Part shown: positions 5,139-22,750 of the stretch, in pieces
Layout of the letters: every line of letters starts with the position of its first letter
Numbering within the stretch: the first letter of the stretch is position 1
Source of the DNA: Pseudomonadota bacterium
GTDB taxonomy: Bacteria > Pseudomonadota > Alphaproteobacteria > JAAXGF01
Length of the DNA stretch: 24,000 nt
Reading direction: 5' to 3'
NCBI GenBank assembly: GCA_022572945.1
Contig: JACZUY010000007.1
Coordinates: forward strand, 1-24,000
Translations under genes and position numbers: made by a program
Notes under the pieces: generated by a model
What the model was told of the DNA's origin: nothing
Seen by the model: the letters and a program-made list of their open reading frames with translations, nothing else
Databases searched by the model: none

Positions 5139-5148
5139 CCCGGCGGCT

Positions 5149-5415: not shown

Positions 5416-5580
5416 CCGGATTTCAAAATGAATGGATCAGGTTTGAAATCCGGAGCCTGCGCCCCCTTTGATCGCAATAATTGCGGGCTGCCGCTTATGC
5501 GGCCAGGTTTTGATCAATGTAACGTTTGGCCTGCGTGGCGTTTGAACGCAGCAATTTCACAAAAATTGTGACATTGCGTA
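5416..5580 (-). repeat. Mosaic intergenic element, copy A (inverted relative to copies B, C and D)
   Basis: Hairpin CCGGATTTCAAA/TTTGAAATCCGG (5416-5427 / 5442-5453). Core ...CCCTTTGATCGCAA..., small hairpin GCCGCTTATGCGGC, and stem CTGCGT/ACGCAG. Hairpin GCAATTTCACAA/TTGTGACATTGC (5551-5577). It is close to 90% identical by eye to the reverse complement of 19036-19197, and it ends 5 nt past the tldD stop. Confidence 0.85.
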
Positions 5581-5585
5581 TGAGC

Positions 5586-7019
5586 CTACACCGCGGCGCC
5601 GCCGACGGTGAGGCCGTCGATCAGGAGCGTCGGCAGGCCGACGCCGACGGGCACGGTCTGGCCGTTCTTGCCGCAGGTGCCGATGCCGGGGTCGAGCGCC
5701 ATGTCGTTGCCGATCGCCTTGATCCGCGTCAGCACGTCGGGGCCGTTGCCGATCAGCGACGCGCCCTTGACCGGGGCACCGACCTTTCCGTCCTCGATGA
5801 GGTACGCTTCGGAAGCCGAGAACACGAACTTGCCCGAGGTGATGTCGACCTGGCCGCCGCCGAAGTTGACCGCATAGAGCCCGCGCTTGACGCCGGCGAT
5901 GATCTCCTCGGGGTCGCGATCGCCCGACTCCATGAAGGTGTTGGTCATGCGCGGCATGGGCGCGTGCGCGAAGCCCTGGCGGCGGCCGTTGCCGGTCGGC
6001 TTCATGCCCATCAGCCGGGCGTTCTGGCGGTCGTGCAGATAGCCGGTGAGAACGCCGTCCTCGATCAGCACCGTGCGTTCGGTGGGCGTGCCCTCGTCGT
6101 CGACCGTGAGCGAGCCGCGGCGGTCCGCAATCGTGCCGTCGTCGATGACGGTCACGCCCGGCGCGGCGACGCGCTCGCCCATGAGCCCGGCGAAGGCCGA
6201 GGTCTTCTTGCGGTTGAAGTCGCCCTCGAGGCCGTGGCCGATCGCCTCGTGCAACAGGATCCCCGGCCAGCCCGGCCCCAGCACGACCTGCATCTCGCCC
6301 GCCGGCGCGGGCACCGATTCGAGGTTCACCAGCGCCTGCCTGAGCGCCTCGTCGACCTGGGCCTGCCAGTGCCCGGGCTCGAAGTAGGCGTGATACGAGC
6401 CGCGCCCGCCGGCGCCGTCCGAGCCCGATTCCATGTGCTCGCCATCGGCCACGACGACGTTGACGTTGAGCCGCACGAGCGGGCGCACGTCGCCCACCCG
6501 CGCGCCGTCGGCGCGGACGATCTCGACCGCCTGCCACTCGCCCAGGAGCGACACCATGACCTGGCGGACGCGCGGATCGCGCCCCCGGGCGTAGGCGTCG
6601 ATGTCGGCGAGCAGCTTGACCTTGGCGGCGAAGTCGACCTCGTTCAGCGGGTTGGCGTCGTCGTAGAACGCCTGGTTGGTGCGCGCGGGGCCGGCGCCCG
6701 CCGCGCCCCCGTGGCCGGTGCGCACCGCCTGCACGGTTCGCGCCGCGCGGCGCATCGCCGCTTCCGACAGCTCGGAGGCGTGGGCGTACCCGGTCGCCTC
6801 GCCCGAGACCGCGCGCAGGCCGAAGCCCTGCGTGGTGTCGAAGCTGGCGTTCTTGAGCTTGCCGTCGTCGAAGGCGAAGCTCTCGGATTGGCGGTACTCG
6901 AGGAACAGCTCGCCGTCGTCGGCGCCGGCGAGCGCCTCGGCGACGATCCCCTCGACGCGGGCGCGGTCGAGACCGGCGCGGGTGAAGAACAGCTCATCGG
7001 CGCTCGGATAGGCGGTCAT
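5586..7019 (-). CDS. tldD: Metalloprotease TldD
   Basis: ...ELFLEYRQSESFAFDDGKLKNASFDTTQGFGLRAVSGEATGYAHA...LLHEAIGHGLEGDFNRK (HExxxH zinc motif)...TCGKNGQ.VPV. It is co-linear with E. coli TldD. The ATG at 7017-7019 is preferred; a GTG at 7031 is possible. Confidence 0.9.
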   Translation of the reverse strand: MTAYPSADELFFTRAGLDRARVEGIVAEALAGADDGELFLEYRQSESFAFDDGKLKNASFDTTQGFGLRAVSGEATGYAHASELSEAAMRRAARTVQAVRTGHGGAAGAGPARTNQAFYDDANPLNEVDFAAKVKLLADIDAYARGRDPRVRQVMVSLLGEWQAVEIVRADGARVGDVRPLVRLNVNVVVADGEHMESGSDGAGGRGSYHAYFEPGHWQAQVDEALRQALVNLESVPAPAGEMQVVLGPGWPGILLHEAIGHGLEGDFNRKKTSAFAGLMGERVAAPGVTVIDDGTIADRRGSLTVDDEGTPTERTVLIEDGVLTGYLHDRQNARLMGMKPTGNGRRQGFAHAPMPRMTNTFMESGDRDPEEIIAGVKRGLYAVNFGGGQVDITSGKFVFSASEAYLIEDGKVGAPVKGASLIGNGPDVLTRIKAIGNDMALDPGIGTCGKNGQTVPVGVGLPTLLIDGLTVGGAAV

Positions 7020-7089
7020 CGGCTTGCCCACTGATCGACACGAGGGTGCGTCCGGCGCGGACGCACACCGGTAACATAAAGCATTAGTC

Positions 7090-7229
7090 GTTCACCTTTA
7101 CACAATAAAGGTGAACCGCGTTCAATCGCCACGCGGGCTTCCGCCGCATAAGCGGCGGCCCCCATTTGTTGCGATCAAAGGAGGCGCGGGCTGGCGTAAT
7201 CCGAACGAATGGAATCGTTCGGATTACGC
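7090..7229 (+). repeat. Mosaic intergenic element, copy B (in the divergent tldD / ctaC intergenic region)
   Basis: Hairpin GTTCACCTTTA-cacaa-TAAAGGTGAAC (7090-7116). Stem CCGCGT..ACGCGG. Hairpin CCGCCGCataaGCGGCGG. Core CCCCCATTTGTTGCGATCAAAGGAGGCGCGGGCTG. A 15-bp perfect hairpin GCGTAATCCGAACGA-atggaa-TCGTTCGGATTACGC (7194-7229). The module order is the same as in copy C, but both terminal hairpins have different sequences. Confidence 0.8.
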
Positions 7230-7567
7230 TTTAGGGGCGCGATCGGGCGAAGCAAACCTTCGACATCCGCGGCGGCGGCGGGGCGCCGGCGGAGGTCCCG
7301 AAGCCCTCGCGCAGGGCGAATGAAACTCCGCTGAAATCGCCCGAAAAGGCGGTCGAGACCGCGGGCTCGCGGTCTTGTGGTTGGCGGTTCCGTGTTGTAC
7401 GTTCCGAGCGGCGGAGCGCCGTCGACGGGGCCCAGCAGGGAGCACAGGTTCACGAACCGCGTCGGTGCCTGGGCGGGCCGCAGCCTTTGGCGCGAAGCCG
7501 TCGATCCAGCATTGCCGGCGGAGGCGTTATTCGTGGCCGATCATCCGCTTCGGGGAGATCGCGGGAC

Positions 7568-8420
7568 GATGTCGCTTAACGGCAAAATTTTTGGCCTCGC
7601 GGCCGCCGCATGGTCGATGACGTTCGCCGCCGCCGCCAACGCCGGCCAGCCGGTGCCCTGGCAGATCGATTTCCAGGAAGCCGCGACGCCGGTCATGGCG
7701 CAGGTACAAGACTTCAACACCACGATTTCGGTCGTGATCGTTCTCATCAATTGGTTCGTGATCGCCTTGCTGGTCTACGTCATGTGGCGGTTCAACGCCA
7801 AGCGCAACCCGACCCCGTCGAAGACCACGCACAACACGCTGATCGAAGTCGTGTGGACGGTGGCGCCGATCATGATTCTGATTATCATCGCCGTCCCTTC
7901 ATTCCGGCTGCTCTACTTCCAGGACCGCGCCGTCGACGCCGAGATGACGATCAAGGCGGTCGGCAACCAGTGGTACTGGACGTACGAGTACCCGGATCAC
8001 GGCGGATTCGAGTTCGATGCGCTGATGATTCCCGACGACGAGATCGGGCCCGGCCAGGTCCGCCTGCTCGAAACCGACAACCGCATCGTGGTGCCGGTCG
8101 ACACGTCGATCAGGTTGCTGGTTACCGCCGCCGACGTGATTCACGCGTGGGCGGTGCCCGCCTTCGGCGTCAAGGTCGACGCGGTGCCTGGACGCCTCAG
8201 CGAAACCTGGTTCCGGATCGAGCGCGAGGGGGTTTATTACGGCCAGTGCTCGGAACTCTGCGGCGTCTATCACGGCTTCATGCCGATTGCCGTCGAAGCG
8301 GTGTCGAAACAGGCGTTCACCGCCTGGGTCGAACGCGCCAGGCAGGAGTTCGCGCTCGACGACGCGCGCGCCGCGACGACGGTGGCGCAGGCGCGGACTA
8401 AAGCGGTTCAAGGTCGATAG
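7568..8420 (+). CDS. ctaC: Cytochrome c oxidase (aa3) subunit II
   Basis: Signal-like N-terminus MSLNGKIFGLAAAAWSMTFAAAANA, two TM helices, and the CuA motif HAWAVPAFGVKVDAVPGR...CSELCGVYHGFMP. The start is taken at the ATG at 7568; the 64 codons upstream in the listed ORF do not look like coding sequence. Confidence 0.9.
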
Positions 8421-10058
<1,638 letters not shown>

Positions 10059-10088
10059 CCGCGGCGGCACCACCAACGCGAGGCCCAC

Positions 10089-11009
10089 GTGACCGATCAG
10101 ACCATTGCGCTCGACCCACCCGTCGGCAGCGGCGGCGGCGCCGACGCGGGCGTGGCCGATTACATCGCCCTGCTGAAGCCGCGGGTGATGTCGCTGGTGG
10201 TGTTCACCGGCTTCGCCGGGCTGTATCTCGCGCCGGGCTCGCTGCACCCGGTTCTCGCGTTCGCCGCCATCCTGTGCATCGCCGTGGCGGCCGGCGCCTC
10301 GGGCGCGATCAACATGTGGTACGACCGCGACATCGACGCCCGCATGGCGCGCACCCGCGGCCGGCCGATTCCTGCGGGCCGGATCGAACCCGGGGCGGCG
10401 CTCGGCTTCGGCGTCACGCTCGCGGTGGGATCGGTCGTGGTGATGGGTCTCGCAGTCAACGCCGTGGCGGCGGCGTTGTTGGCGCTGACCATCGGCTTCT
10501 ACGTGTTCGTCTACACCATGTGGCTCAAGCGGCGGACGCCGCAGAACATCGTCATCGGCGGCGCCGCCGGGGCGTTCCCGCCGATGATCGGCTGGGCCGC
10601 GGTGACCGGCGACGTAAGCCTCGCCGGTGTGATGCTGTTCGCCATCATCTTCGTGTGGACGCCGCCGCATTTCTGGGCGCTGTCGCTCTACCGTGTGAAA
10701 GACTACGCCAACGCCGGCGTGCCCATGCTGCCCGTGGTCGCGGGCGCGGCAGCGACCGAGCGCCATATCCTGGCGTATGCCCTGGTCCTGTTCCCGGTGG
10801 CGCTGGCACCGGCGTTGCTCGGCGTCGCCGGACCGGTCTACGCGATCGGCGCGGCGCTCCTCGGCGCGGCGTTCGTGGTCTGCGCGATCCGCGTGCAGGG
10901 CGATTCGACGCACCGCGAGGCGCGCCGCATGTTCGGCTTTTCGATCGTCTATCTGTTCATGATCTTCATGCTCTTGCTCGTCGACAAGGGCCTCGGCGGC
11001 GTGGGCTGA
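10089..11009 (+). CDS. ctaB: Protoheme IX farnesyltransferase (heme O synthase)
   Basis: UbiA-family polytopic protein with [16 protein letters not shown], the [19 protein letters not shown] motif, and [14 protein letters not shown] start. Confidence 0.9.
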
Positions 11010-11010
11010 T

Positions 11011-11658
11011 ATGGCGGTCACCGGGCATCACGGACGCCGACGCGGCAAGATCGTTACCGTGGCCGCCCTGGTGGCGGTCCTCGCCGGCATGGGCGGGCTC
11101 ACTTACGCCGCGGTGCCGCTTTACCAGCTGTTCTGCCGGGTGACCGGGTTCGGCGGCGCCACCCAGGTCGCCGAGGCCGCGCCCGAGACGATCGCCGACC
11201 GCGTCATCACCGTGCGCTTCAACACCGACGTCGGCCGCGACATGCCGTGGCGCTTCCGGCCACCGCAACGGCCGATGACGGTGCGCGTCGGCGAGGTGGC
11301 GATCGCGTACTTCAGCGCCGAGAACCCGTCGGACGAGAGCGTGACCGGCACCGCCGTCTTCAACGTCACGCCGTTCAAGGCGGGTCCATATTTCGCGAAA
11401 ATCGCGTGCTTCTGCTTCGACGAGCAGACGCTGGCGCCGGGCGAGCGGGTCGAGATGCCGGTGACGTTCTTCATCGACCCGGCGATCATGGACAACGTCA
11501 ACGTCGATGATGTCAACACCATCACGCTCTCCTACACCGCCTTCCGGGTGGCGGGCGCGAAGGCGCCCGAACCGGTGGCGCTGAACCGGCCGCGCGGGGC
11601 GCGACCTGCGCCCGCGCATGATGAGGCTTCAAGGCGGTTGTTGAAGGGACCGACGTGA
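11011..11658 (+). CDS. ctaG: Cytochrome c oxidase copper assembly protein CtaG/Cox11
   Basis: Single TM anchor, [15 protein letters not shown], and the copper-binding CFCF motif ([16 protein letters not shown]). Confidence 0.9.
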
Positions 11659-12488
11659 TGGTCGAGAGGCAGGCCAGGGCGCACGAATACCATCTCGTCG
11701 ACCCGAGTCCGTGGCCGGCGGTCGGCGCGTTTGCCGCGCTCGTCATCGCGGCCGGCGGCATCCTGCTGATGCACGGCATCGCCGACTGGCCCTTCTACCT
11801 CGGCGTGCTGCTGGTGCTGTTCTCCATGTTCGGCTGGTGGCGCGACGTCATCCGCGAGGCCGAGTTCGAGGGCCACCACACGCCGATCGTGCAGCTCGGG
11901 ATGCGCTACGGCATGGCGTTGTTCATCGCCTCGGAGGTGATGTTCTTCGTCGCCTTCTTCTGGGCCTTCTTCGACGCCAGCCTGTTCCCCGGCGGCGCGG
12001 GCAGCGAGGAGATGATCGGCCGCGCCGCGTACACCGGCGGGGTGTGGCCACCGACGCACATCGAAGCCTTCAACGCGTTCGAGATCCCGTTCGTCAACAC
12101 GCTGATCCTCCTGACCTCGGGAACCACGGTGACCTGGGCGCATCACGAAATCCGCGACGGCGACCGCGCGCGCGCGATCTTCGCGTTGTGGCTGACGATC
12201 CTCCTCGGCATCAGCTTCACCGCGCTGCAGGCTTACGAGTACGTCCATGCCCCGTTCGACTTCACCGGCGGCATCTACGGCTCGACGTTCTTCATGGCCA
12301 CCGGCTTCCACGGCTTCCACGTCATCATCGGCACCTGCTTCCTGTCGGTGTGCCTGTGGCGGCTCTACCAGGGGCATTTCCGGCCCGACCACCATTTCGG
12401 CTTCGAGGCGGCGGCATGGTACTGGCACTTCGTCGACGTGGTGTGGCTGTTCCTGTTCAGCAGCGTCTACTGGTGGGGCGGCGGCTGA
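11658..12488 (+). CDS. ctaE: Cytochrome c oxidase subunit III
   Basis: [12 protein letters not shown]..., [54 protein letters not shown]. The ATG overlaps the ctaG stop (TGATG). Confidence 0.92.
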
Positions 12489-12510
12489 GCGCGCCGCGAT
12501 CGCACGCGGC

Positions 12511-13251
12511 ATGACAACGGCGACGTCCCGGCGTGAGGCGCTGCGATTTCGCCCGACGCTTCGGGCGACCGCGATCGCCCTGCCCGCGTTTCTCGTTCTC
12601 ATTGCGCTCGGCGCCTGGCAGGTGCAGCGGCTGGCGTCGAAGACCGAGCTGATCGCCTTGATCGAGGCCCGGCTCGCGGCGCCGGCCGCTCCCTTGCCCG
12701 CCGGCCTGCTGCGGCCCGGCGACGTGTCCGGCATCGCATTCCGCCGCGTCACCGTCGCCGGGACGCTGCTCCACGACCGCGAGATCTACCTCGTGGCCAC
12801 GCGTCGCGGAAAGTTTGGATTTCACGTCGTCACCCCGCTGCGGCGCGCCGGCGGCGGCTTCGTGCTCGTCGACCGCGGCTGGGTGCCGGTCGAAGCGCGC
12901 GATCCGGCGCGCCGTGCCGCGGGCCAGATCGGGGGCGCGGTGACGATCGAGGGGCTGGTGCGCGCGCCGCAGGAGCCCGGCTGGTTCACGCCCGAAAACG
13001 ACCCGGCCAAGAATTACTGGTTCTGGCGCGACGTTCCCGCCATGGCCGCGTTCGCCGGCGTCGACGCGCCGCCGTTGATCGTCGAAGCCGGGCCGGCGGC
13101 CAACCCCGGGGGTCTGCCGATCGGCCGCGCGTTCCGCTTCGATATCGCCAACGACCACCTGCAGTACGCGATCACCTGGTTCCTGCTCGCCGCGTCGCTC
13201 GCGGTGATCTACGTCCTGTCCCAGCGCTCGCCCGTGTCGGAGAACGGCTGA
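12511..13251 (+). CDS. surf1: SURF1-family cytochrome oxidase biogenesis protein
   Basis: N-terminal TM followed by LGAWQVQRLASK, ...GFHVVTPL...VLVDRGWVP, and a C-terminal TM with NDHLQYAITWF. The start is the ATG at 12511; the listed longer ORF from 12247 overlaps ctaE out of frame. Confidence 0.85.
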   Translation: MTTATSRREALRFRPTLRATAIALPAFLVLIALGAWQVQRLASKTELIALIEARLAAPAAPLPAGLLRPGDVSGIAFRRVTVAGTLLHDREIYLVATRRGKFGFHVVTPLRRAGGGFVLVDRGWVPVEARDPARRAAGQIGGAVTIEGLVRAPQEPGWFTPENDPAKNYWFWRDVPAMAAFAGVDAPPLIVEAGPAANPGGLPIGRAFRFDIANDHLQYAITWFLLAASLAVIYVLSQRSPVSENG

Positions 13252-14183: not shown

Positions 14184-15672
14184 GGCCTACGCCGAGCTCG
14201 AACGTCGGTTCCGGCGGCTCGGCATTCTGCGCGGCGCGGGCGCGGTGCTCGGCTGGGACCGCCAGACGATGATGCCCGTGGGCGGCGCCGACGATCGCAC
14301 CGAGCAGGCCGCCGCGCTCGCCCTGGTCGACCACGAAACGCTCACCGACGCGTCGATGGGCGCGCTGCTCGACAGTGCCGAAGCCGACGAGGCGGGAGCG
14401 CTGGAGCAATGGGAATCGGCCAACCTGCGCCTGATGCGGCGCCAGTGGATCCACGCCAACGCGGTCGAGGCCGGGCTCGTCGAGGCGCTGACCCGCGCCG
14501 CCGCCACGGCCGAGATGCGCTGGCGCACGGCGCGCGCGGAAGATGACTTCGCCGGCTTCGCGCCGCTGCTCGCCGAGGTCGTGGCACTGGTCCGCGAAGT
14601 CGCCGCGGCCACGGCCACGGCGCTCGGCTGCACGCCGTACGAAGCGCTTCTCGATAGCTTCGAGCCGCACGGCCGTACGGCCGACATCGACGCGCTGTTC
14701 GCCGACCTCGAGGCGTTCCTTCCCGGCTTTCTCGCGCAGGTGATCGAGCGTCAGGCCGGGCGTCCCGCGCCGCTCCCGCTCGACGGGCCGTTCCCGGTCG
14801 CGGCGCAGCGCGATCTCGGCCGCCGGCTGATGGCGGTCATCGGCTTCGACTTCGACCACGGGCGCCTCGACGTGAGCGATCACCCGTTCACCGGCGGCAC
14901 CCCCGGCGACGTGCGCATCACCACGCGCTATCACGACGACGACTTCGCCAAGTCGCTGATGGCGGTGCTGCACGAAACCGGGCACGCGCTCTACGAACGC
15001 GGCCTGCCCGCGGCGTGGCGCTACCAGCCGGTCGGCGAGTCGGCGAGCATGAGCCTGCACGAGAGCCAGTCGCTGCTGCTCGAGATGCAGGCGTGCCGCG
15101 GCGAGGCGTTCATCGGCTTCGCCGCGCCGCTGATGCGCGACGCCTTCGGCGGCGACGGCCCGGCGTGGGACGCCGGGAACCTCCACCGGCTCGCCACCCG
15201 GGTGGCGCCCGGATTGATCCGCGTCGACGCCGACGAGGTCACGTATCCGGCGCACATCCTGCTGCGCTACCGGCTCGAGAAGGCGCTGATCGCCGGCGAC
15301 CTCGCGGTCGACGACCTCCCCGGCGCGTGGAACGACGGCATGCAAGCGTTGCTCGGGGTCACGCCGCCCGACGACCGCCTCGGCTGCCTGCAGGACATCC
15401 ACTGGGCGGAGGGCCTGTTCGGCTACTTCCCGACCTACACGCTCGGCGCGATGATCGCGGCCCAACTGTTCGATGCGGCGACGGCGGCCGACCCGGACAT
15501 CGTGCCCGGAATCGGCCGCGGCGACTTCGCGCCGCTGATGCGCTGGCTGCGCGCGCAGGTCCACGAACTCGGCGCGTCGCTCACCACCGCGGAGCTCGTC
15601 GAGCGCGCCACCGGCCGGCCGCTCGACGTGGCGGTGTTCAAGGCGCACCTCGAAACCCGCTACCTCGCGTGA
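14176..15672 (+). CDS. M32 family carboxypeptidase (carboxypeptidase Taq-like)
   Basis: 498 aa. HPF..G....DVRITTRY, HETGHALYE (HExxH), SMSLHESQS, IRVDADEVTYPAHI.LRY..E, and DIHWAEG.FGYFPTYTLG are M32 signatures. It overlaps the ctaA end by 8 nt. Confidence 0.85.
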   Translation: MAEAYAELERRFRRLGILRGAGAVLGWDRQTMMPVGGADDRTEQAAALALVDHETLTDASMGALLDSAEADEAGALEQWESANLRLMRRQWIHANAVEAGLVEALTRAAATAEMRWRTARAEDDFAGFAPLLAEVVALVREVAAATATALGCTPYEALLDSFEPHGRTADIDALFADLEAFLPGFLAQVIERQAGRPAPLPLDGPFPVAAQRDLGRRLMAVIGFDFDHGRLDVSDHPFTGGTPGDVRITTRYHDDDFAKSLMAVLHETGHALYERGLPAAWRYQPVGESASMSLHESQSLLLEMQACRGEAFIGFAAPLMRDAFGGDGPAWDAGNLHRLATRVAPGLIRVDADEVTYPAHILLRYRLEKALIAGDLAVDDLPGAWNDGMQALLGVTPPDDRLGCLQDIHWAEGLFGYFPTYTLGAMIAAQLFDAATAADPDIVPGIGRGDFAPLMRWLRAQVHELGASLTTAELVERATGRPLDVAVFKAHLETRYLA

Positions 15673-15736
15673 GCTTGTAACGCCGGGACCGCGCCGATAG
15701 TCTGTTCGCCCGCCGCGGCGGCGGGAAGGAGCGGTT

Positions 15737-17149
15737 TTGAATTACGTCTCGACGCGGGGCGAGGCCCCGGTTCTCGCCTTCGACGACGCGCTTCTCGCGG
15801 GGCTCGCCCGCGACGGCGGGCTCTACGTGCCCGAGCGCTGGCCGCGGTTCACCGAAGACGAGATCGCCGGCCTCGCGGGGCTCGGTTACGCCGAGCTCGC
15901 GACCCGGGTGATGGCGCCGTTCGTCGGCGACGCGATCGCGCGCGACGACTTCGCCCGCATCGCCGGGGACGCTTACGCCGGCTTCGCCCACCCCGACGTC
16001 GCCCCGCTGCGCCAGATCGGCGAGAACGAATGGCTGCTCGAGCTGTTCCACGGGCCGACGCTGGCGTTCAAGGACTTCGCGTTGCAGCTCGTCGGACGGC
16101 TGTTCGACCACGTGCTCGATCGCCGCGGCGGGCGCGTCACGATCGTCGGCGCGACCTCGGGCGACACCGGCTCGGCGGCGATCGAGGGCTGCCGCGACCG
16201 CGCCAACCTCGACATTTTCGTGCTCCACCCCAAGGGCCGCATCTCCGAGGTGCAGCGCCGGCAGATGACCACCGTTCGGTCCGGGAACGTGCACAATATC
16301 GCCATAGACGGCACCTTCGACGACTGCCAGGCGCTGGTGAAGGCGATGTTCGCCGACGCCCGGTTCCGCGACGAGATGGCGCTCGCGGCGTTCAACTCGA
16401 TCAACTGGGCGCGGGTGGCGGCGCAGACCGTCTATTACTTCGCCGCCGCGCTCGCGCTCGGCGCGCCGGGCCGCGCCGTCGCGTTCTCGGTGCCGACCGG
16501 CAACTTCGGCGACGTCTACGCGGGCTACGCCGCGCACCGCATGGGATTGCCGGTCAGCCGGCTCGTCATCGCCACCAACCGCAACGACATCCTGGCGCGG
16601 TTTCTTGCGAACGGTCGCTACGAGCTGGCCGAGGTGGTCGCGACCCTGAGCCCGAGCATGGACATCCAGGTGGCGAGCAACTTCGAGCGGCTCCTGTTCG
16701 AGCTTTACGACCGCGACGGCGCCAGCGTGCGCCGGCTGATGGAGCGGCTGCGCGCGAAAGGCGGCTTCGCCATCGACGCCGAGCGGCTGGCGGCGGCCCG
16801 CGCGCTGTTCGCCGCCCACCGCCTCGACGACGCGGAAACGCAAGCCGAGATTGCCCGCATCCACCGCGACAGCGGCGTCGTGGTCGACCCCCACACCGCG
16901 ATCGGCGTCGCCGCCGCGCGCGCGTGCCGCGACGATCCGCGCACGCCGACAGTCGCGCTCGCCACCGCGCATCCGGCCAAGTTTCCGCAAGCGGTGGAGC
17001 GCGCCGCCGGCGTCCGCCCAGAGCTGCCCGAGCGGCTCGCCGACCTGTTCGAGCGGCCCGAGCACTGCGAGGACTTGCCAAACGACCTCGACGCCGTGCA
17101 AACTTTTATACGCGAGCACGCCATTATCCGGGGTTATTCGAAAGGCTAG
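15737..17149 (+). CDS. thrC: Threonine synthase
   Basis: MNYVSTRGEAP..F.DALL.GLA.DGGLYVP, the PLP-lysine motif FHGPTLAFKDFALQ, ATSGDTGSAA, and PTGNFG. TTG start at 15737 with a GGAAGGAG RBS 5 nt upstream. Confidence 0.92.
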   Translation: MNYVSTRGEAPVLAFDDALLAGLARDGGLYVPERWPRFTEDEIAGLAGLGYAELATRVMAPFVGDAIARDDFARIAGDAYAGFAHPDVAPLRQIGENEWLLELFHGPTLAFKDFALQLVGRLFDHVLDRRGGRVTIVGATSGDTGSAAIEGCRDRANLDIFVLHPKGRISEVQRRQMTTVRSGNVHNIAIDGTFDDCQALVKAMFADARFRDEMALAAFNSINWARVAAQTVYYFAAALALGAPGRAVAFSVPTGNFGDVYAGYAAHRMGLPVSRLVIATNRNDILARFLANGRYELAEVVATLSPSMDIQVASNFERLLFELYDRDGASVRRLMERLRAKGGFAIDAERLAAARALFAAHRLDDAETQAEIARIHRDSGVVVDPHTAIGVAAARACRDDPRTPTVALATAHPAKFPQAVERAAGVRPELPERLADLFERPEHCEDLPNDLDAVQTFIREHAIIRGYSKG

Positions 17150-17151
17150 GG

Positions 17152-18414
17152 GTGACGGAGATACGGACAACCACGCTCGACAATGGTCTCAGGGTGGTCA
17201 GCGCAGACATGCCCGGGCTCGAGTCCGCGGCGGTTGGAGTGTGGGTCGACGCCGGCGCGCGCTGCGAATCCAGCGACCTCAACGGCGTCTCGCACATGTT
17301 GGAGCACATGGCGTTCAAGGGCACCCGGCGGCGCAGCGCGCTGGCCATCGCCGAGGACATCGAAGCCGTCGGCGGACACCTCAACGCCTATACCTCGCTC
17401 GAGCGGACCGCCTACATCGCGCGGGTGATGAAAGACGACGTGCCGTTGGCGGTCGACATCCTCGCCGACATCCTGCAGCACACGACCATGCCCGAGGACG
17501 AGCTCGCCCGCGAGCGCGAGGTGGTGATCCAGGAGATCGCCCAGGTCCACGACACCCCCGACGACGTCGTCTTCGACCTGTTCCAGGAGACCGCCTATCC
17601 CGACCAGCCGCTGGGGCGCTCGATCCTGGGGACCGCCGAGCGCGTCAGCCGGTTCTCGCGCGACGCGCTGATCGCCTACATGGACGCGCATTACAGCGCC
17701 GAGCGCATGGTCGCGGTCGCCGCCGGCCGCGTCGATCACGAGACCTTCGCCGGCCTCGTCGGCGACGCCTTCGCATCGCTGCCGCGCCGCACGCCGGAAC
17801 CGATCGAGCCCGCCGACTACCGCGGCGGGGATTTGCGCCGCGAGCGCGACCTCGAGCAGGTCCATCTCGTCATCGGGTTCAACGGCGTGTCGTATGACGA
17901 CCCCGAGTTCTTCGCCCAGCAGGTGCTGTCGACCGCGCTCGGCGGGGGCATGTCGTCGCGGCTGTTCCAGGAGGTGCGCGAGAAGCGCGGCCTCGCGTAC
18001 TCGATATTCTCTTTCGCCGCCTCGTACATCGACGGCGGGGTGTTCGGAATTTACGCCGGCGCCGGCGCCGACCGCCTCGACGAGCTGGTTCCGGTGATCT
18101 GCGACGAAGTCGTGAAAATCGCCGCCTCGATCGACGAGGACGAGATCGACCGGGCGCGGGCGCAGCTCAAGTCGTCGCTTCTGATGTCGCTGGAAAGCCC
18201 GTCGGCGCGCTGCGAGCAAATGGCCCGGCACATGTTGATCTACGGCCGGCCGTTGCCGGCGGACGAGATCATCGAGTGCATCGAGGCGGTCGACGCCGCG
18301 GCGTTGACCGGCGCCGCGCGGCGGATGATAGCCAACGGGAAACCCACCGTCGCGGCGCTGGGGCAGGTCGGCGGCATCGAGCCGTACGACAGCATCGCCG
18401 CGCGTTTCGGCTGA
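17152..18414 (+). CDS. M16 family zinc peptidase (pitrilysin / mitochondrial-processing-peptidase-like)
   Basis: GLRVVS..MPG..SAAVGVWVDAGARCE....NGVSHMLEHMAFKGT (HxxEH zinc motif) ...YTS.ERTAY. GTG start at 17152. The listed 794-aa ORF from 16030 is an out-of-frame shadow over thrC upstream of this point. Confidence 0.88.
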   Translation: MTEIRTTTLDNGLRVVSADMPGLESAAVGVWVDAGARCESSDLNGVSHMLEHMAFKGTRRRSALAIAEDIEAVGGHLNAYTSLERTAYIARVMKDDVPLAVDILADILQHTTMPEDELAREREVVIQEIAQVHDTPDDVVFDLFQETAYPDQPLGRSILGTAERVSRFSRDALIAYMDAHYSAERMVAVAAGRVDHETFAGLVGDAFASLPRRTPEPIEPADYRGGDLRRERDLEQVHLVIGFNGVSYDDPEFFAQQVLSTALGGGMSSRLFQEVREKRGLAYSIFSFAASYIDGGVFGIYAGAGADRLDELVPVICDEVVKIAASIDEDEIDRARAQLKSSLLMSLESPSARCEQMARHMLIYGRPLPADEIIECIEAVDAAALTGAARRMIANGKPTVAALGQVGGIEPYDSIAARFG

Positions 18415-18425
18415 GGGGAAAGCGC

Positions 18426-19034
18426 GTGCTCGGATTCCTCAAAAACGACTCCCCTGCCGCCGCCGCCACGCGTCTCACCGGGGAGCGGGTCTACCTGCGG
18501 CCGCCCTGCCCCGGCGATTGGCGCCCGTGGGCCGAGCTGCGCACCGCCTCGCGCGCATTTCTCCAGCCCTGGGAGCCGCGCTGGGCCGATGGCGCGCTCA
18601 CCAGCGCCGCGTTTCGCCGCCGGCTACGCCGGCAGGCGCGCGAGAGCCGCGAGGATACCGGCTACAGCTTTTTCGTCTTCCTCCGCGAAGACGACGTCCA
18701 CGTCGGCGGCGTGAACTTCAGCGAAATCCAACGCGGCGTGGCGATGTCGTGCACGCTGGGCTATTGGATCGGCGCGCGGTACGCGCGCCAGGGCCTGATG
18801 ACCGAGGCCGTGGGGTGCGTTTTGCCGTTCGCGTTCGAGACCCTTGGACTGAATCGCGTCGAGGCCGCGTGCCTGCCGACCAACACCGCGAGCGAACGGC
18901 TGTTGCGAACGCTCGGGTTTCGCCAGGAAGGCTTCGCCCGCGACTATCTGCGCATTAACGGCGAGTGGCGCGATCATCTGCTGTTCGCGATGCGCGCCAG
19001 CGACAATATCAAGCGATCGCGCGGGAAAGGATAA
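18426..19034 (+). CDS. GNAT family N-acetyltransferase (RimJ/RimL-like)
   Basis: ...RVYLRPP...DW..W..LR..S..FL.PWEP..., GYWIGARYARQGLMTEAV..VL.FAFE.LGLNRVEAAC.P.N..S.RLL...GF..EG.ARDYL.ING.W.DH. GTG start at 18426, in frame with the listed ORF. Confidence 0.8.
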   Translation: MLGFLKNDSPAAAATRLTGERVYLRPPCPGDWRPWAELRTASRAFLQPWEPRWADGALTSAAFRRRLRRQARESREDTGYSFFVFLREDDVHVGGVNFSEIQRGVAMSCTLGYWIGARYARQGLMTEAVGCVLPFAFETLGLNRVEAACLPTNTASERLLRTLGFRQEGFARDYLRINGEWRDHLLFAMRASDNIKRSRGKG

Positions 19035-19035
19035 T

Positions 19036-19197
19036 ACGCAATGTCACAAACCTTGTGACATTGCTGCGTTCAAACGCCACGCAGGCCAAACATTACATTG
19101 ACCAAAACCTGGCCGCATACGCGGCGGCCCCCAATTCGTTGCGATCAAAGGGCGCGCGGGCTGCGGATTTCAAACTGACCAATCAATTTGAAATCCG
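19036..19197 (+). repeat. Mosaic intergenic element, copy C (fills the convergent GNAT / yqgE intergenic region)
   Basis: 12-bp perfect hairpin GCAATGTCACAA-acc-TTGTGACATTGC (19038-19064), starting 4 nt after the GNAT stop. Stem CTGCGT..ACGCAG. Hairpin GCCGCatacGCGGC. Core CCCCCAATTCGTTGCGATCAAAGGGCGCGCGGGCTG. Hairpin CGGATTTCAAA-12 nt-TTTGAAATCCG (19164-19197), ending 10 nt before the yqgE stop. Confidence 0.85.
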
Positions 19198-19207
19198 ATA
19201 AGCAGCG

Positions 19208-19774
19208 TCACGCGCGCCCGGCGGTTCCCGACAGCATCGAGAAGTCGACGCCGAGCTTGTTGATCGCCTGCTCCCATTTGGCGTCGAGGTCGAGGCCGAA
19301 AATCAGCTCGTCATCGGCGGGAACGTTCAGCCAGCCGTTGGCGTGGATTTCCGCGTCGAGCTGGCCGGGCGCCCAGCCAGCGTAGCCGAGCGCCAGCAGG
19401 CTGCGCTGCGGGCCGTCGCCGCCGGCGAGCGCGCGCAACACGTCCACCGTCGCGGTCAGCGCAACGCCGTCCCGGATTACCAGCGTCGCTTCGCGCACGT
19501 AATCGTCGGAATGCAACACGAAGCCGCGGCCCGATTCGACGGGGCCGCCGAAATGAACGCGGATCTGCTCGTCGGGGGCGTCGGTGTCGATGTTGAGCTG
19601 GCGCAGGAGATCGGGAAAGGTAACCGAGTCGATGAGCTTGTTGACCACCAGCCCCATTGCGCCTTCGGCGCTGTGGGCGCACAGATAGATCACCGAGCGG
19701 GCGAAGCGCGGGTCGCCCATCTGCGGCATCGCGACCAGCATCTGCCCTTCGAAGTAACCGGCGGTCTCGTCCAT
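19208..19774 (-). CDS. yqgE: YqgE/AlgH family protein (UPF0301)
   Basis: [46 protein letters not shown]...GGPV....GFVLH...[14 protein letters not shown]. The start is taken at the ATG at 19774; the listed upstream extension is not homologous-looking. Confidence 0.85.
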
Positions 19775-19938
19775 CTGGCTTTCCACGTCCGCGCGGCGGT
19801 GATCGCCCTGCGACTCACGCAAGTATCTCACAGAAGTGACAAACCAAAGGTAAAAAAACCGTTTATATACTACATACGGCGCGTGAATCCGCCGACACGC
19901 GGATGACCCGGCGGGGTCCGCGCCGTGCTGGAGAATTG

Positions 19939-22050
19939 ATGACCGGTTCGGGGACGACATTTTTCGCGCGCTTGGCCGCGTCGGCGCTGCTCGCGGTTCT
20001 CGGGCTCGCGTCGGAGGCGCGGGCGCAGGCGAGCGCGTGGGACCGGACCGAGGTGAGCGAGGCGCGGCTGATCTCGGCGCAGAGCGCGGTCGGCGACGGC
20101 GCGGTTTCGCTCGGCCTGCAGATTCGCCTCGCCCCGACCTGGAAGACGTATTGGCGCACCCCAGGCGAGGCCGGGTTCCCGACCAGCATCGACTGGAGCG
20201 CCTCGACCAACCTCGCCGGGGCCGAGATCGCCTGGCCGGCGCCCGACCGCTTCCTCGAGATCGGCGACCTGGTGACCCACGGCTACACCGACGAGGTGGT
20301 GTTTCCCATCACCGCGCGCGCCGTCGACCCGGATGCGCCGCTGGCCCTGCGCGCGGTCGTCGACTACGCCGCCTGCCAACAGATTTGCTATCGATTTCAA
20401 GCCAACCTGGCGCTCGACCTGCCCGCGGGTCCGGCGTCGCCGACCACGTTCGCCGACCCGATCGCCGAGTTCCTCGCGCGCGTCCCCGGTCCGCCGCGCC
20501 CGGGTGGTCCGGCGATCGAAGCGGTCGAGGTCTCGGGCGCGGGCGCCGACCGGCGCTTGCGCGTCACCGCGCGCGCGCCGGCCGGGTTCGTCCGGCCCGA
20601 CCTGTTCATCGAGGGGCCCGACACAGTGTATGTGGCCGCGCCCGAGCTCGAGCTACGCGCCGGCGCGCGACAGGCGGTGTTTCGCATGGCGGCGCCCCGG
20701 GGGCGCGCGGGCGAGGCGCTCGCCGGCGTGGCGCTGACGCTGACGCTGGTCGACGGCGACGAGGCCGTGGAGCAGACGCTCGCCGTCGTGCCCGGCGCGG
20801 CCGAGACGCCGATGTGGAGCGCGCTCGCGGCGATCCTCGCGGTGGCGTTCGCGGGCGGGCTGATTCTCAACCTCATGCCCTGCGTGCTGCCGGTGCTGTC
20901 GCTCAAGATCATGGGCGTGATCGGCCTGGGCGGCGAGGCGCGGGGCCGAATCGCCGTACGCTTCCTCGCCGCGGCGGCGGGAATCCTGGTTTCGTTCCTG
21001 GTGCTCGCCGCCGGCACCGTCACGCTCAAGGCGGCGGGCATGGCGGTCGGCTGGGGCGTCCAGTTCCAGCAGCCGCTGTTCCTGGTCGCGCTGGTCGTGA
21101 TGCTGACGCTGTTCGCCTGCGCCCTTTGGGACCTGCTCACGATCCCGCTGCCGGCGTGGCTCGGCGGCCTCGGCGCGTCCGAGCGGGGCGCCAAGGGCAT
21201 CGCCGGCCATTTCATCAGCGGCGCCTTCGCCACCGTTCTGGCGACGCCCTGTTCGGCACCGTTCCTCGGCACCGCGGTGGGCTTCGCGCTGGCGCGCGGC
21301 ACGCCCGAGATCTTCGCCGTGTTCACCGCGCTCGGCGTCGGCATGGCGACGCCGTATCTCGTGGTGGCGGCGTTCCCCGGCCTGGCCAGCCGCCTGCCGC
21401 GTCCCGGTCCGTGGATGGTGACGCTGCGCCGCGTGCTCGCGCTTCTCCTGGCGGCGACGGCGGTGTGGCTGCTGACGGTCTTGGCGACCCAGTCGGGCGC
21501 CCCGGCGGCGCTCGCCGTCGGCGCGCTGATGGCCGTCGCGGCCGCGCTCCTGTGGTTCGCTTCGCGCGACATGCTGCGCCTCGCCGCCGCCGCCGGTGGG
21601 CTTGGCGTCGTCTTCGTGCTCGCCTTCGCCACCCCGGGTCAGCTCGGGCGCGCGGCGCTACCGCCCCCGCCCGCCGCCGACGCGTCCATGTGGCGACCGT
21701 TCGACCGCGCGGCGATTCCCGAGCTGATCGCCGCCGGCAAGACCGTGTTCGTCGACGTCACCGCCGATTGGTGCGTCACCTGCCAGTTCAACAAGAAGTT
21801 GGTGCTCGAGCGCGGCGAGGTGGCGCGGCGGCTCGCCGCCGACCATCTGGTGGCGATGCGCGCCGACTGGACCCTGCCCGATGCCGGGATCGCCGCCTAT
21901 CTCGAAGAGTTCGGCCGCTTCGGCATCCCGTTCAACGCGGTCTATGGGCCGGCGCTGCCGCGCGGGCTGGCGCTGCCCGAGCTGTTGACCGAACGCGCCG
22001 TGCTCACGGCGTTCGACCGCGCCGGCCGCATCGTCGCTGCGTCCGACTGA
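19939..22050 (+). CDS. DsbD/ScsB-family thiol:disulfide interchange (protein-disulfide reductase) membrane protein
   Basis: Signal peptide [29 protein letters not shown]. The N-terminal periplasmic domain has YAACQQICY. The central TM core has [13 protein letters not shown] and TPCSAPFLG. The C-terminal thioredoxin fold has [21 protein letters not shown] 5 nt upstream of the ATG at 19939. Confidence 0.85.
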
Positions 22051-22144
22051 TGGCGCTCGCGCGGTTGTGGCCTCGCGGCAACAAACGCACTACATTCGGC
22101 GCCAAGGCTCGCAAGGCCCGGCAACCAGTACGGGGGGGGGCGCC

Positions 22145-22627
22145 ATGACCATCAAGGTCGGCGATCGCATACCGTCCGCCACGCTTCGCCGAATGACCGC
22201 CGACGGCCCGGCCGAGATTTCCACCGAGGAGCTGTTCGGCGGCAAGCGCGTCGCGCTTTTCGCGCTTCCCGGCGCGTTCACGCCGACCTGCTCGGCCAAG
22301 CATCTGCCGGGCTTCGTCGCCAACGCCGACGCGCTCAAGGCCAAGGGGGTCGACGCCATCGCCTGCGTGTCGGTCAACGACGCGTTCGTCATGGACGCGT
22401 GGGGCAAGGACCAGAACGTCGGCGATACGGTGATGATGCTCGCCGACGGCAGCGCCGAGTTCACCCGCGCGCTCGGGCTCGAGCTCGACCTCATCGCCCG
22501 CGGCCTCGGCGTGCGCTCGCAGCGTTACTCGATGGTGGTCGAGGACGGCGTCGTCGCGGCGCTGCACGTCGAGGACGGCACCGGCATGAGCGTCAGCGAC
22601 GCCGAAACCCTGCTCGGCGACCTTTAA
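22145..22627 (+). CDS. Peroxiredoxin, Prx5 (type II) subfamily
   Basis: MTIKVGDRIP.ATL...........EELF.GKRVALFALPGAFTPTCSAKHLPGFV...LKAKGVD.IACVSVNDAFVM.AW (peroxidatic Cys in the PGAFTPTCS motif). No signal peptide. Confidence 0.88.
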   Translation: MTIKVGDRIPSATLRRMTADGPAEISTEELFGGKRVALFALPGAFTPTCSAKHLPGFVANADALKAKGVDAIACVSVNDAFVMDAWGKDQNVGDTVMMLADGSAEFTRALGLELDLIARGLGVRSQRYSMVVEDGVVAALHVEDGTGMSVSDAETLLGDL

Positions 22628-22629
22628 TA

Positions 22630-22750
22630 CCATCGGTCATCAAGAATGACCGATGGGCGTTCAATCGGCACGCAGCCTTGACGTAAGCATGAGCGGCGGC
22701 GCGCGGTCGCGCTTGCCAGCGGTCATTATGAGTCAATCATAGTGACCGCT
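22630..22750 (+). repeat. Mosaic intergenic element, copy D (shortened: central core module missing), in the convergent prx / rnhA region
   Basis: 11-bp perfect hairpin CCATCGGTCAT-caaga-ATGACCGATGG (22630-22656), starting 3 nt after the prx stop. Conserved module GCGTTCAATCGGCACGCAG (compare B GCGTTCAATCGCCACGCGG and C GCGTTCAAACGCCACGCAG). GCATGAGCGGCGG (compare GCATAAGCGGCGG in B). 14-bp hairpin AGCGGTCATTATGA-gtcaa-TCATAGTGACCGCT (22718-22750) with one G-T pair. Confidence 0.7.

Follow-up and report, generated by a model that had tools for sequence, protein, structure and literature searches.

Short interspersed repeats with a three-hairpin core, probably of the REP/BIME, REPIN or MITE kind, in uncultured marine Alphaproteobacteria

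The window analysed here, a stretch of 24,000 nucleotides (24 kb), contains four similar, hairpin-rich intergenic segments, which raises the question of what kind of element they represent and why their structure is maintained. All four copies of the original prediction are confirmed, far above chance. The motif GCGTTCAANCGNCACGC has 4 exact occurrences in the window against 0.39 expected, a count reached by none of 100 shuffles, and TTGCGATCAAAGGNNGCGCNGGCT has 3 against 0.01 expected. Copies A to D fold far better than their own shuffles (z from -4.3 to -6.6), and among the 25 longest local inverted repeats of the window, terminal hairpin H1 of copy C and terminal hairpin H2 of copies B and C are the sole long perfect stem-loops with separate arms. 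Copies A and B recur in L093, an independent assembly from another sample; therefore, the copies in the window are not an assembly artefact. The anatomy of the four copies, including the core hairpins P1b, P2 and P3 described below, is as follows.

5411..5581, minus strand: copy A, whole element from cap to cap, A/C subtype monomer, between tldD (5586-7031, minus strand) and the mer-island side; also in L093
5551..5577, minus strand: H1 terminal palindrome of A, GCAATGTCACAA ttt TTGTGAAATTGC, with one mismatch
5533..5549, minus strand: 5' core module of A, GCGTTCAAACGCCACGC, with the invariant GCGTTCAA and the 5' arm and loop of P1b
5501..5531, minus strand: accessory hairpin of A, GGCCAAAC...CCTGGCC, inserted between P1b and P2
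5490..5503, minus strand: P2 hairpin of A, GCCGC-ATAA-GCGGC
5455..5489, minus strand: P3 hairpin of A with loop insertion (the "core" of the original prediction)
5416..5453, minus strand: H2 terminal palindrome of A, CCGGATTTCAAA ... TTTGAAATCCGG
7090..7229, plus strand: copy B, B subtype monomer, in the divergent tldD-coxB intergenic region
Modules of B: H1 7090-7116; 5' core module 7118-7134; P2 7142-7157; P3 with insertion 7158-7192; H2 7194-7229
19032..19201, plus strand: copy C, A/C subtype monomer, between a GNAT gene (plus) and algH (minus)
Modules of C: TAATAC cap 19032-19037; H1 19038-19064; 5' core module 19066-19082; accessory hairpin 19084-19114; P2 19112-19125; P3 with insertion 19127-19162; H2 19164-19197; ATAA 19198-19201
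22625..22755, plus strand: copy D, D subtype monomer, between a peroxiredoxin gene (plus) and rnhA (minus)
Modules of D: TAATAC cap 22625-22630; H1 22630-22656; 5' core module 22657-22673; degenerate P2 22683-22698; short P3 22699-22717; H2 22716-22752; GTAT 22752-22755

The rnhA reading frame extends 9 codons into H2 of copy D. The similarity between the flanks of A and C that continues beyond the hairpins was discarded as GC-rich coding background, and related copies elsewhere share no flanks.

The constant unit of the element is a GC-rich core of about 60 nt that consists of an invariant 5' GCGTTCAA followed by the hairpins P1b (3 bp), P2 (6 bp, loop ATAA or ACGG) and P3 (4-6 bp, loop GGTC), whose loops are the places where insertions fall. 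The core sequence is nearly invariant across genomes of 45 to 69% G+C, the GC-rich core being the same even in loci of 45% G+C, and contains GCGT-N9-ACGC, itself a dyad. Among 95 distinct cores, 92.2% of the cells are paired, compared to 82.3% in shuffles, and the covariation score is 0.261, compared to 0.099 in shuffles (0 of 500 reach 0.261) and at most 0.07 in slid controls. The observed pair states are CG 69, GC 18, UG 7 and other 1 in P1b, GC 77/AU 18 and CG 63/AU 31 in P2, and GC 52/CG 36 in P3; these counts take in inherited changes, and most could be accounted for by roughly six independent events. Covariation of the three core helices, along with a compensatory T-A to C-G change in H1 of orthologous copies, bears out the proposal that structure is kept despite sequence turnover. 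The compensatory change originally reported for the CTGCGT/ACGCAG stem does not extend to the family: its four GCGT/ACGC pairs are invariant, 40 of 83 copies form the adjacent pair, and 24.5% form the outermost one. The 3-bp helix P1b, which overlaps this stem, does covary, and it was chosen over CTGCGT/ACGCAG as the conserved helix because eight copies swap ACGC for an insertion yet keep GCC/GGC. In copy D, P2 is broken: the GCCGC-n4-GCGGC hairpin assigned to it is absent, the 5' arm reading GTAAGC.

The segment CCCCCA..TTGCGATCAAAGG..GCGGGCTG, initially taken for the core of the family, is actually an expansion of the P3 loop that is found only in A, B, C and L031. A short P3, GCCCGC-n4-GCGGGC, is present in L037, which has the H1 and H2 of B, and in L103, the ortholog of C, and the insertion with TTGCGATCAAAGG is absent from the orthologous copy of C in a relative with a 96% identical AlgH; the P3-loop insertion is lineage-specific. 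The form seen in the window surrounds the core with long, AT-richer palindromes, H1 and H2, capped by T-N-A-T-A. The claim that these are perfect in every copy is slightly overstated: a single G.A mismatch interrupts H1 of A, and H2 of D includes one T.G pair and is degenerate at its outer end. Nor do they differ completely among copies, as first thought, given that the variants have a common GTCA...TGAC centre and are found with almost no change in other genomes. Each subfamily has its own H1 and H2 modules, which reappear from genome to genome instead of varying freely. Their interpretation as ordinary terminators or pre-existing target palindromes was set aside, the longest listed perfect stem-loops with separate arms in the window being all located inside copies. 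Other accessory modules joined to the core are a T-rich leader, TTTGGAAAGC, an inverted second variant core, and head-to-tail repeats. The T-run of the accessory hairpin of A comes after P2 on the opposite strand, a weak terminator-like motif. The outer arms of the D subtype, TACCATCGGTCAT and ATGACCGCTGGTA, agree at 12 of 13 positions; the A/C subtype has weak terminal inverted repeats (9/14), and B and the monomer at 4403-4486 of L077 have none. Arrays terminate in a solo GCGTTCAATCGC. One solo H1 is present in L061.

The search for further copies beyond the window, suggested in the original prediction, identifies about 200 core matches in marine alphaproteobacterial metagenome-assembled genomes (MAGs) and metagenomes, from many samples and assemblers, long-read contigs included. 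A strict pattern detects 37 stretches among species-representative genomes, nearly all in marine alphaproteobacterial MAGs with several loci per MAG, and 49 stretches in metagenomes; further cores come from a covariance model. Some copies sit in bins labelled Planctomycetota and Acidobacteria. The 14-kb contig L077 carries six cores in four elements, next to the 4 in 24 kb of the window. The core occurs in monomers, in tandem arrays and in inverted dimers of about 200 nt that fold into a long hairpin of 35-45 bp and join two unit variants, v1 (GCCGC-ATAA-GCGGC, GCGC-GGTC-GCGC) and v2 (GCCAA-ACGG-TTGGC, GCCCGC-GGTC-GCGGGC). Scanning both strands of the whole window with the Rfam covariance models yields 0 matches at E<=1; a blastn search of copies B and D against 72,556 plasmids (PLSDB) gives no match, and neither does a viral contig collection. 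Full-text literature searches (RIME, REP/RAYT/Rhodospirillales, core strings) return no description of the element, and a tRNA/tmRNA scan, prompted by the T-loop look of TTCAA in the 5' module, detects nothing. Thus, having matched no described family in these Rfam, plasmid, viral-contig and literature resources, the family is apparently undescribed; it falls within a well-known type of bacterial repeat and does not make a new type of system.

Comparison of orthologous sites in this group of uncultured marine Alphaproteobacteria reveals gain and loss of copies at gene ends, as well as exchange or inversion of modules between orthologous copies. The D site is empty in L094, L095, L096, L098 and L101 (peroxiredoxin 86-96% identical), and in these five relatives the flanking genes overlap by 4 nt, at TTTAA. 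The C site holds a copy with a short P3 in L103/L104 and is empty in L102 and L105. At the B site, L041/L042 carry a D-subtype element and L038-L040 carry nothing. Compared to L002, L077 contains an 84-nt monomer that divides the overlapping stop/start ATGA, with ATGA duplicated. A 160-nt dimer present in L014 is precisely missing from L061, with the breakpoint exactly within GCG|TTCAA...TTGAA|CGC; instead of an insertion in L014, a hairpin may have been deleted in L061. Orthologous dimers are flipped between relatives.

Among the candidates initially put forward, a REP/BIME-like element and a non-autonomous mobile element are the best supported, on account of the many further copies and clean presence/absence at orthologous sites. 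The family is probably a set of REP/BIME-, REPIN- or MITE-like short interspersed repeats, neither coding nor autonomous, in a clade of uncultured marine Alphaproteobacteria. An enzyme whose gene lies elsewhere in the genome would act in trans to insert copies, recognising either the conserved core or the ends of the hairpins and preferring T-N-A or stop-codon sites at gene boundaries, where insertion is tolerated. Complementarity would be kept since only well-paired copies propagate or persist, selection acting at the level of DNA or of the element, not on one RNA strand. Ectopic gene conversion may pass variants, such as the P3 insertion, among the copies of one genome, and effects on transcripts (3'-end hairpins, a stop codon supplied at a boundary) would be secondary. 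The sequence comparisons leave room for a host function of the element.

Like the REP/BIME elements of Enterobacteria and the GTAG/CGTC REP superfamilies (Di Nocera et al. 2013), these are multi-copy, short, GC-rich extragenic palindromes that lie in both orientations and mainly where genes end, with mosaic composition, alternating orientation and head-to-head dimers of two unit variants; some REP dimers also lie inside longer palindromes (PMC3733652). By definition, however, a REP is one palindrome of 20-40 nt that carries an unpaired GTAG or CGTC tag terminally; CGTC REPs have an 8-9-bp stem that starts with A-T pairs, a 4-5-nt loop and a CCA tail (PMC3733652). Here, the unit is a fixed array of three hairpins plus the invariant GCGTTCAA, about 60 nt in all; the stems are 3-6 bp, all G-C, without A-T first pairs or a CCA tail; no conserved unpaired tag is found, GACG occurring beside P2 only in v1 (GGCC in v2); and, unlike in REP/BIME, long AT-richer terminal palindromes belong to the element. 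What is shared with REPs and REPINs is the high copy number, extragenic location, both orientations and frequent head-to-head dimers folding into a long hairpin. The resemblance to BIMEs is in architecture only (v1-H2-spacer-v2 dimers, recurrent leader and spacer motifs), and no sequence relation to E. coli BIME units is seen in a comparison made via Rfam and the literature alone. The REPIN-RAYT systems of Pseudomonas and Enterobacteria (PMC3116915, PMC3337134) likewise have two inverted units that fold with their spacer into one long hairpin, non-autonomous copies, and related but diverged populations in related genomes; their mark is a cognate single-copy gene for RAYT, a Y1/HUH transposase, flanked by repeats. 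No RAYT is found in the roughly 0.8 Mb around the copies analysed here, and the window copies are monomers flanked by their own hairpins, not REP doublets.

With MITEs (Correia elements of Neisseria, ERIC/IRU, RU-1/2/3; PMC3184786, PMC2759123), the family shares a length of 110-200 nt, the lack of coding capacity, terminal inverted repeats in the D subtype (12/13) and the dimers (35-45 bp), insertion polymorphism, and short AT-rich flanking repeats compatible with a 3-4-bp target duplication. It differs from them in that conservation is higher in the interior core than at the termini, opposite to a classical MITE, with several unrelated-looking termini on one core; moreover, some monomers lack inverted repeats (L077, 4403-4486), and no parent insertion sequence (IS) with matching ends is found in the roughly 0.8 Mb searched. 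BOX elements of Streptococcus pneumoniae and RIMEs of rhizobia are modular intergenic mosaics of a few conserved boxes with stable structures, and RIMEs are alphaproteobacterial. At the level of general description, the likeness is that of a modular mosaic lacking an identified mobilising agent; the module set and the host clade differ, and the PLSDB plasmids, expected to include rhizobial megaplasmids, show no blastn similarity to B or D. Integron attC sites, structured ends of promoterless cassettes arrayed beside an integrase, were also considered and rejected: the flanking genes are housekeeping ones (cox operon, tldD, thrC, algH, dsbD, rnhA), there is no integrase, and orientations are mixed.

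With regard to the mobilising enzyme, all-against-all clustering of the ORFs around the copies recovers no recurrent transposase, only common metabolic families. A phmmer search with E. coli RayT against the 4780 ORFs of all fetched loci, about 0.8 Mb, gives no match at E<=10, and in the same loci no pair of cores flanks a transposase gene. The IS5-family element of L039 was rejected as a parent, having unrelated ends and a TTAA duplication. Filled and empty sites compared in pairs show the flanks TAA...TAT (D), TAA...TAA (C) and (A)TGA...(A)TGA (L077); the flanks of L103 are 7-mers matching at 6 of 7 positions, 3 of 10 D-type monomers have identical TTA/TTA or TAA/TAA flanks, and no target-site duplication is seen at A or at L042. 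A target duplication of fixed length could not be established from the flanks compared. It is conceivable, if rather unlikely, that GCGTTCAA and the three-hairpin core are the recognition/cleavage module of an unrecognised site-specific mobilisation system, and hence define a new REP-like class. Such a system might use a domesticated enzyme that acts on single-stranded DNA, of the HUH/Y1 type or another, with no relation to known RAYTs, and would move or copy the core from one interchangeable "shell" to another (hairpin pairs, leaders, dimers). A mechanism of this sort would account for the interior being more conserved than the termini, the breakpoint exactly inside GCG|TTCAA...TTGAA|CGC, the solo GCGTTCAATCGC at array ends, and the flipped orthologous dimers.

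Gene context bears on an alternative, that the element is a host-selected mRNA 3'-end element, i.e., a U-tract-less or bidirectional terminator or a barrier to 3'-exonucleases, with copies kept for stabilising or insulating the transcripts of neighbouring genes. Copies lie in either orientation to genes, and 34 of the 37 that could be classified border the 3' end of one gene or more. Convergent pairs are over-represented: 14 copies lie between convergent genes, 11 are antisense and 9 sense in tandem contexts, and 3 lie between divergent genes, figures that are approximate because the crude GC3-based gene caller missed several real genes. Three of the window copies begin 0-5 nt from a stop codon; of the three adjacencies originally described, only two involve well-supported genes, ORF 4955-5413 beside A being doubtful. 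A compensatory change keeps the stems, and on the reverse strand of A and C, the P2 hairpin followed by AGGTTTTG forms a weak terminator-like site facing the converging gene; this P2 with TTTT is all that scores in a terminator scan, which does not report H1 or H2. Nevertheless, H1 and H2 lack the direct U-tract that accompanies the G+C-rich hairpin of an intrinsic terminator, a class rejected for them, and related genomes do have canonical A-tract/GC-hairpin/T-tract terminators that look different. Tandem contexts hold both orientations, and hairpin mismatches (G.T 12, A.C 20, other 22) show no enrichment of G.U over A.C. Furthermore, B sits in a divergent promoter region, close relatives manage without the element at the same gene pairs, where the genes even overlap, and purifying selection against insertions elsewhere would also produce a 3'-end bias. 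The terminator or 3'-stabiliser candidate of the original prediction is accordingly weakened by the two orientations, the missing U-tracts and the lack of a G.U excess, and the 3'-end function is an unlikely explanation.

The element could also serve as a DNA scaffold to which a protein binds, for example gyrase, a regulator or a nucleoid-associated protein, the core being kept by binding of a host protein. E. coli BIMEs bind IHF, gyrase and Pol I, which offers a precedent, and both the near invariance of the core across 45 to 69% G+C genomes and the GCGT-N9-ACGC dyad fit this possibility. Read from the sequence, however, the core has no IHF-like consensus and no binding protein can be named; copies decay, with P2 lost in D, and are dispensable in close relatives; and binding of a mobilising enzyme explains the conservation of the core equally well. 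Such a scaffold is therefore quite improbable. Slimmer still are the prospects of a multi-copy structured non-coding RNA (a new small ribozyme, regulatory RNA or guide-scaffold RNA), a reading suggested by the covariation of three helices whose loops expand, by strongly stable predicted folds, and by a P1/P1b pseudoknot that may form around the invariant UUCAA. Against it stand the lack of an Rfam match at E<=1, both orientations to transcription, no G.U excess, no promoter or terminator framing the unit, and inverted dimers, tandem arrays and insertion polymorphism that are typical of DNA repeats. Chance similarity or an assembly/binning artefact, a concern because the contig of the window is metagenome-assembled, can be dismissed given 4 and 3 occurrences against shuffle expectations of 0.39 and 0.01, the reproduction of A and B in an independent assembly, and about 200 core matches from many samples and assemblers.

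As probable non-autonomous repeats, the copies reach a density of about one element per 4-6 kb in the sampled regions (window, L077), and, if this holds genome-wide, they would be a major non-coding component of uncultured Alphaproteobacteria of the deep sea and oxygen-minimum zones. With its conserved interior and swappable hairpin ends, the family lends itself to the question of what selection acts on in such repeats, and it also bears on which enzyme moves alphaproteobacterial REP-like repeats, many of which have no known transposase (PMC3733652). The element is a ready marker for strain-level population genetics and will confound gene calling, assembly and binning. Where gene pairs overlap, it splits them, and it provides or shifts stop codons; rnhA in the window becomes 8 residues longer.

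The original prediction placed four copies of a mosaic repeat in the window, at 5416-5580 (copy A, reverse strand), 7090-7229 (B), 19036-19197 (C) and 22630-22750 (D); these positions are right, and the sequences match its description. The observation is confirmed, and its interpretation is supported in part. The GCGTTCAANCGNCACGC module has four exact occurrences in the window (0.39 expected) and the TTGCGATCAAAGGNNGCGCNGGCT motif has three (0.01 expected), and all four copies fold far more stably than their own shuffles (z from -4.3 to -6.6). An assembly artefact is excluded because a 5.3-kb contig from another sample and another assembler (L093) contains A and B. In a listing of the window's 25 longest local inverted repeats, long perfect stem-loops with separate arms occur only as terminal hairpins (H1 of C, H2 of B and H2 of C). 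The claim that these hairpins are perfect in every copy fails for H1 of A (a mismatch) and H2 of D (a T.G pair), and the small GC hairpin attributed to all copies lacks its 5' arm in D.

The window (68% G+C) belongs to a marine metagenome-assembled contig labelled "Proteobacteria bacterium" and includes the following features:

1-5400, mercury-resistance island
215-661, reverse strand, merA fragment
927-1691, reverse strand, merB
1711-2001 and 2307-2828, reverse strand, two HMA/merP-like ORFs
2842-3336, reverse strand, merT
3465-4256, reverse strand, DedA/VTT
4260-4757, forward strand, merR
4842-5138, forward strand, BrnA antitoxin
reverse strand, tldD
operon coxB-coxA-ctaB-ctaG-coxC-SURF1-ctaA
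M32 carboxypeptidase, thrC, M16 peptidase and GNAT genes
reverse strand, algH
dsbD and peroxiredoxin genes
reverse strand, rnhA and APH-family kinase

Convergent gene pairs enclose A, C and D, and the divergent tldD and coxB enclose B. TAA terminates three of the window's 22 ORFs, all three abutting an element end as TAA|TAC (one ORF is doubtful). The long ORF 4955-5413, which abuts A, is unlikely to be a genuine gene. In relatives, PAS-GGDEF-EAL or SDR genes occupy the island's side of tldD, so that the mer island (window 1-5413) is lineage-specific. The island contains three MerR-type promoter/operator dyads (200-227, 3306-3333 and 4279-4306; reverse strand CTTGAACCTGTAG-TTA-CTACAGG), with 79-82% mutual identity and each upstream of a mer gene, and two direct duplications, 1-120/497-616 (83% identity) and 4676-4755/5142-5221 (89% identity), the latter repeating the merR 3' end downstream of the BrnA gene. 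A 92-nt direct repeat (2551-2642/2683-2774, 73% identity, 132-nt spacing) within the HMA-domain ORF 2307-2828 suggests that this protein may have an internally repetitive linker.

Further copies exist elsewhere. A scan of a genome collection with the pattern GCGTTCAANCGNCACGC-N(8-38)-GCATNNGCGGC identifies 37 stretches, nearly all in MAGs of uncultured marine Alphaproteobacteria, from sources including the 3000-m ocean and oxygen-minimum zones, with three MAGs containing 6-9 loci each; matches in Roseateles and Mycobacterium are probably due to chance. The same pattern identifies 49 metagenome contigs. The constant part of the aligned copies is a core of ~60 nt, GCGTTCAA-P1b-P2-P3, where P1b, P2 and P3 are short hairpins, with the consensus GCGTTCAAnCG-nCACGCAGnC-TCC-CGCCGC ATAA GCGGCG-A-CGCGC GGTC GCGCTTGCC and a second variant, GCCAA ACGG TTGGC / GCCCGC GGTC GCGGGCT. 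A covariance model built on 35 cores (R1) yields 18 matches at E<=1 (seven strong ones) across the window plus five tldD loci, 55 in the genome loci and 87 in the metagenome loci; a single 14 kb contig (L077) carries four elements with six cores. Typical D-type elements are also present in L008, L027 and L031, from bins of one sample series titled Planctomycetota, "Proteobacteria" and Acidobacteria, which are probably mis-binned alphaproteobacterial contigs; the repeat could be used as a binning check.

Across 95 distinct cores, 92.2% of the cells are paired versus 82.3% in column shuffles, and the covariation score is 0.261 versus 0.099 (0 of 500 shuffles reach 0.261), with slid controls at 0.07 or less. 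Pairs switch in P1b (CG 69, GC 18, UG 7, other 1), in P2 (GC 77/AU 18; CG 63/AU 31) and in P3 (GC 52/CG 36), counts that include inherited changes in an alignment fitted to the model and correspond to an estimated half a dozen or so independent events. The GCGT/ACGC stem is invariant across copies and, because it never varies, uninformative either way; its extension, to which the original prediction attributed a compensatory change, is paired in just 40 of 83 copies. In eight copies, ACGC is replaced by a 20-25-nt hairpin with the P1b arms GCC/GGC kept, and loop insertions also occur in P2 (L033) and P3; because these expansions fall in loops, they support the three-hairpin model. The segment previously taken for the core, CCCCCA..TTGCGATCAAAGG..GCGGGCTG, turns out to be accessory, namely P3 with a ~20-nt loop insertion. 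A locus with both H1 and H2 of the B type (L037) has a short P3 nonetheless, and so do the orthologs of C in L103 and L104 (AlgH 96% identical), which share its site, H1, accessory hairpin, P2 and H2; the C orthologs indicate that the insertion is recent. In the window's genome, three copies contain it and belong to two hairpin subtypes, which suggests copy-to-copy conversion.

The hairpin-flanked monomers of the window are one form of the element, and three further arrangements are found elsewhere. Inverted heterodimers, which predominate among the metagenome matches, have the order leader TTTGGAAAGC (a T-rich accessory module), core variant v1, H2, spacer, variant v2 reversed and leader reversed, and are predicted to form one long hairpin whose stem spans 35-45 bp (-135 to -162 kcal/mol). 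Some monomers possess the leader and no hairpins. The SGMAG-56 MAG (L021 6560-6801, L033 97-360 and L004) has head-to-tail arrays without hairpins, with a period of 76-85 nt and AT-rich spacers, in loci of 45% G+C where the core stays GC-rich; in one unit the P2 loop is expanded by an insertion of ~100 nt, and a solo GCGTTCAATCGC closes the array.

Comparison of orthologous sites reveals gain, loss and turnover. The D site is empty in five contigs (peroxiredoxin 86-96% identical), where there is a 4-nt overlap (CTT TAA GCG) between rnhA and the peroxiredoxin gene; in the window, a 121-nt element directly follows TAA, with TAT after it, and rnhA reads 9 codons into H2. At the C site, L103 and L104 carry the element, and both L102 (93% identical, with a spacer of 8 nt) and L105 (80% identical) lack it; filled alleles have TAA on both flanks. 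In the tldD-coxB spacer, the B-type element of the window has as its counterpart in L041 and L042 a D-type element with the same orientation, and L038-L040 have no element there. At a gene pair that overlaps at CTAG in L038, L042 has an element placed precisely between the two stop codons. In L077, an 84-nt leader-type monomer resides within the ATGA stop/start overlap of tandem genes that appear to be moaD/moaE-like, with ATGA duplicated; L002 is empty at this site. In two pairs of orthologous dimers (L002 4567-4755 versus L077 1586-1755; L009 3682-3872 versus L088 1147-1320), flanks and ends are identical and the interiors (v1-H2-spacer-v2) have opposite order, compatible with either a recombinational flip between the 30-45-bp inverted arms or independent re-insertion. 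Module content differs between the orthologous dimers of L003 and L086. Where L014 has a full 160-nt dimer, L061 (3274-3320; flanks 90% identical) has only a solo H1, then GCGC and a leader remnant, with the breakpoint within GCG|TTCAA...TTGAA|CGC; the difference represents either insertion or hairpin deletion, and the solo H1 shows that hairpin modules can occur without the core. At the peroxiredoxin-rnhA junction of L102 (121-144), a 24-nt spacer between the two stop codons, TACCCCCTATCATAGGAGGAGGTC, begins with TACC, similarly to the 5' end of D-type elements, and includes the TCATAG found in H2; it may have been left behind by an element since lost.

The terminal hairpins do not vary freely: their subtypes recur in other genomes. 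The D subtype (CCATCGGTCAT.. and CCAGCGGTCAT..) is almost unchanged in many MAGs, relatives of the A/C subtype are present in MAG BS3bin.25 (CAAAGTCACG..; CCGAAAGTCAAAACGA..), and the B subtype is found again in L037. A GTCA...TGAC centre is common to every subtype, and T-N-A-T-A caps both element ends. About half of the hairpins outside the window contain a mismatch (G.T 12, A.C 20, other 22), without the G.U excess that would indicate selection on one RNA strand; in H1, the orthologs L025 and L087 (91% identical) differ by a double change from T-A to C-G. Neither H1 nor H2 is terminator-like. A following TTTT is present only at P2 of A and C, read on the reverse strand, and classical A-tract/GC-hairpin/T-tract terminators do occur in these genomes. 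Of 57 cores put through a crude reading-frame test, 14 were assigned to a convergent context, 11 to tandem antisense, 9 to tandem sense and 3 to divergent; thus, the copies avoid promoters and have no strand preference.

The element behaves like REP/BIME, REPIN and MITE repeats, and lacks the tags that define the GTAG and CGTC REP superfamilies (PMC3733652). The original prediction allowed for a known family, and none in Rfam matches; nor is there a match in a viral contig collection (also scanned with the pattern), in a database of plasmids or in the searchable literature. The element is therefore filed as what is apparently an undescribed family of a known kind, unusual in that its core of three hairpins shows higher conservation than the termini, its terminal palindromes are interchangeable, its loops are expanded in places and its dimers flip. 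The element is probably best explained as a mobile mosaic repeat that is non-autonomous.

With respect to a partner enzyme, no recurrent ORF family beyond common metabolic families is found beside the copies, E. coli RayT has no match among the 4780 ORFs of all loci, and a parent IS is not demonstrable. The IS1031 group of the IS5 family (ISfinder) has TNA targets. The flanking T-N-A repeats suggest that a DDE-like staggered cut of 3-4 bp might be involved, the flank evidence being inconsistent; a core-recognising enzyme fits better with the conserved interior. An IS5-family element (DUF772 and DDE_Tnp_1) interrupting an SDR gene (L039 11910-13179; TTAA duplication, ~19-bp inverted ends GGGCACCTCGAAAAATGCC), the site of which in L040 (9561-9565) is without the element, has ends unrelated to those of the repeat. 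The tldD neighbourhood of L039-L042 contains many IS4/IS5/IS66-type transposase genes. Between ctaB and ctaG, L039 (6036-6158) and L040 (3693-3815) encode a YCO2-family ORF of 40 residues that is missing in the window at ~11073-11081 (a 117-nt difference).
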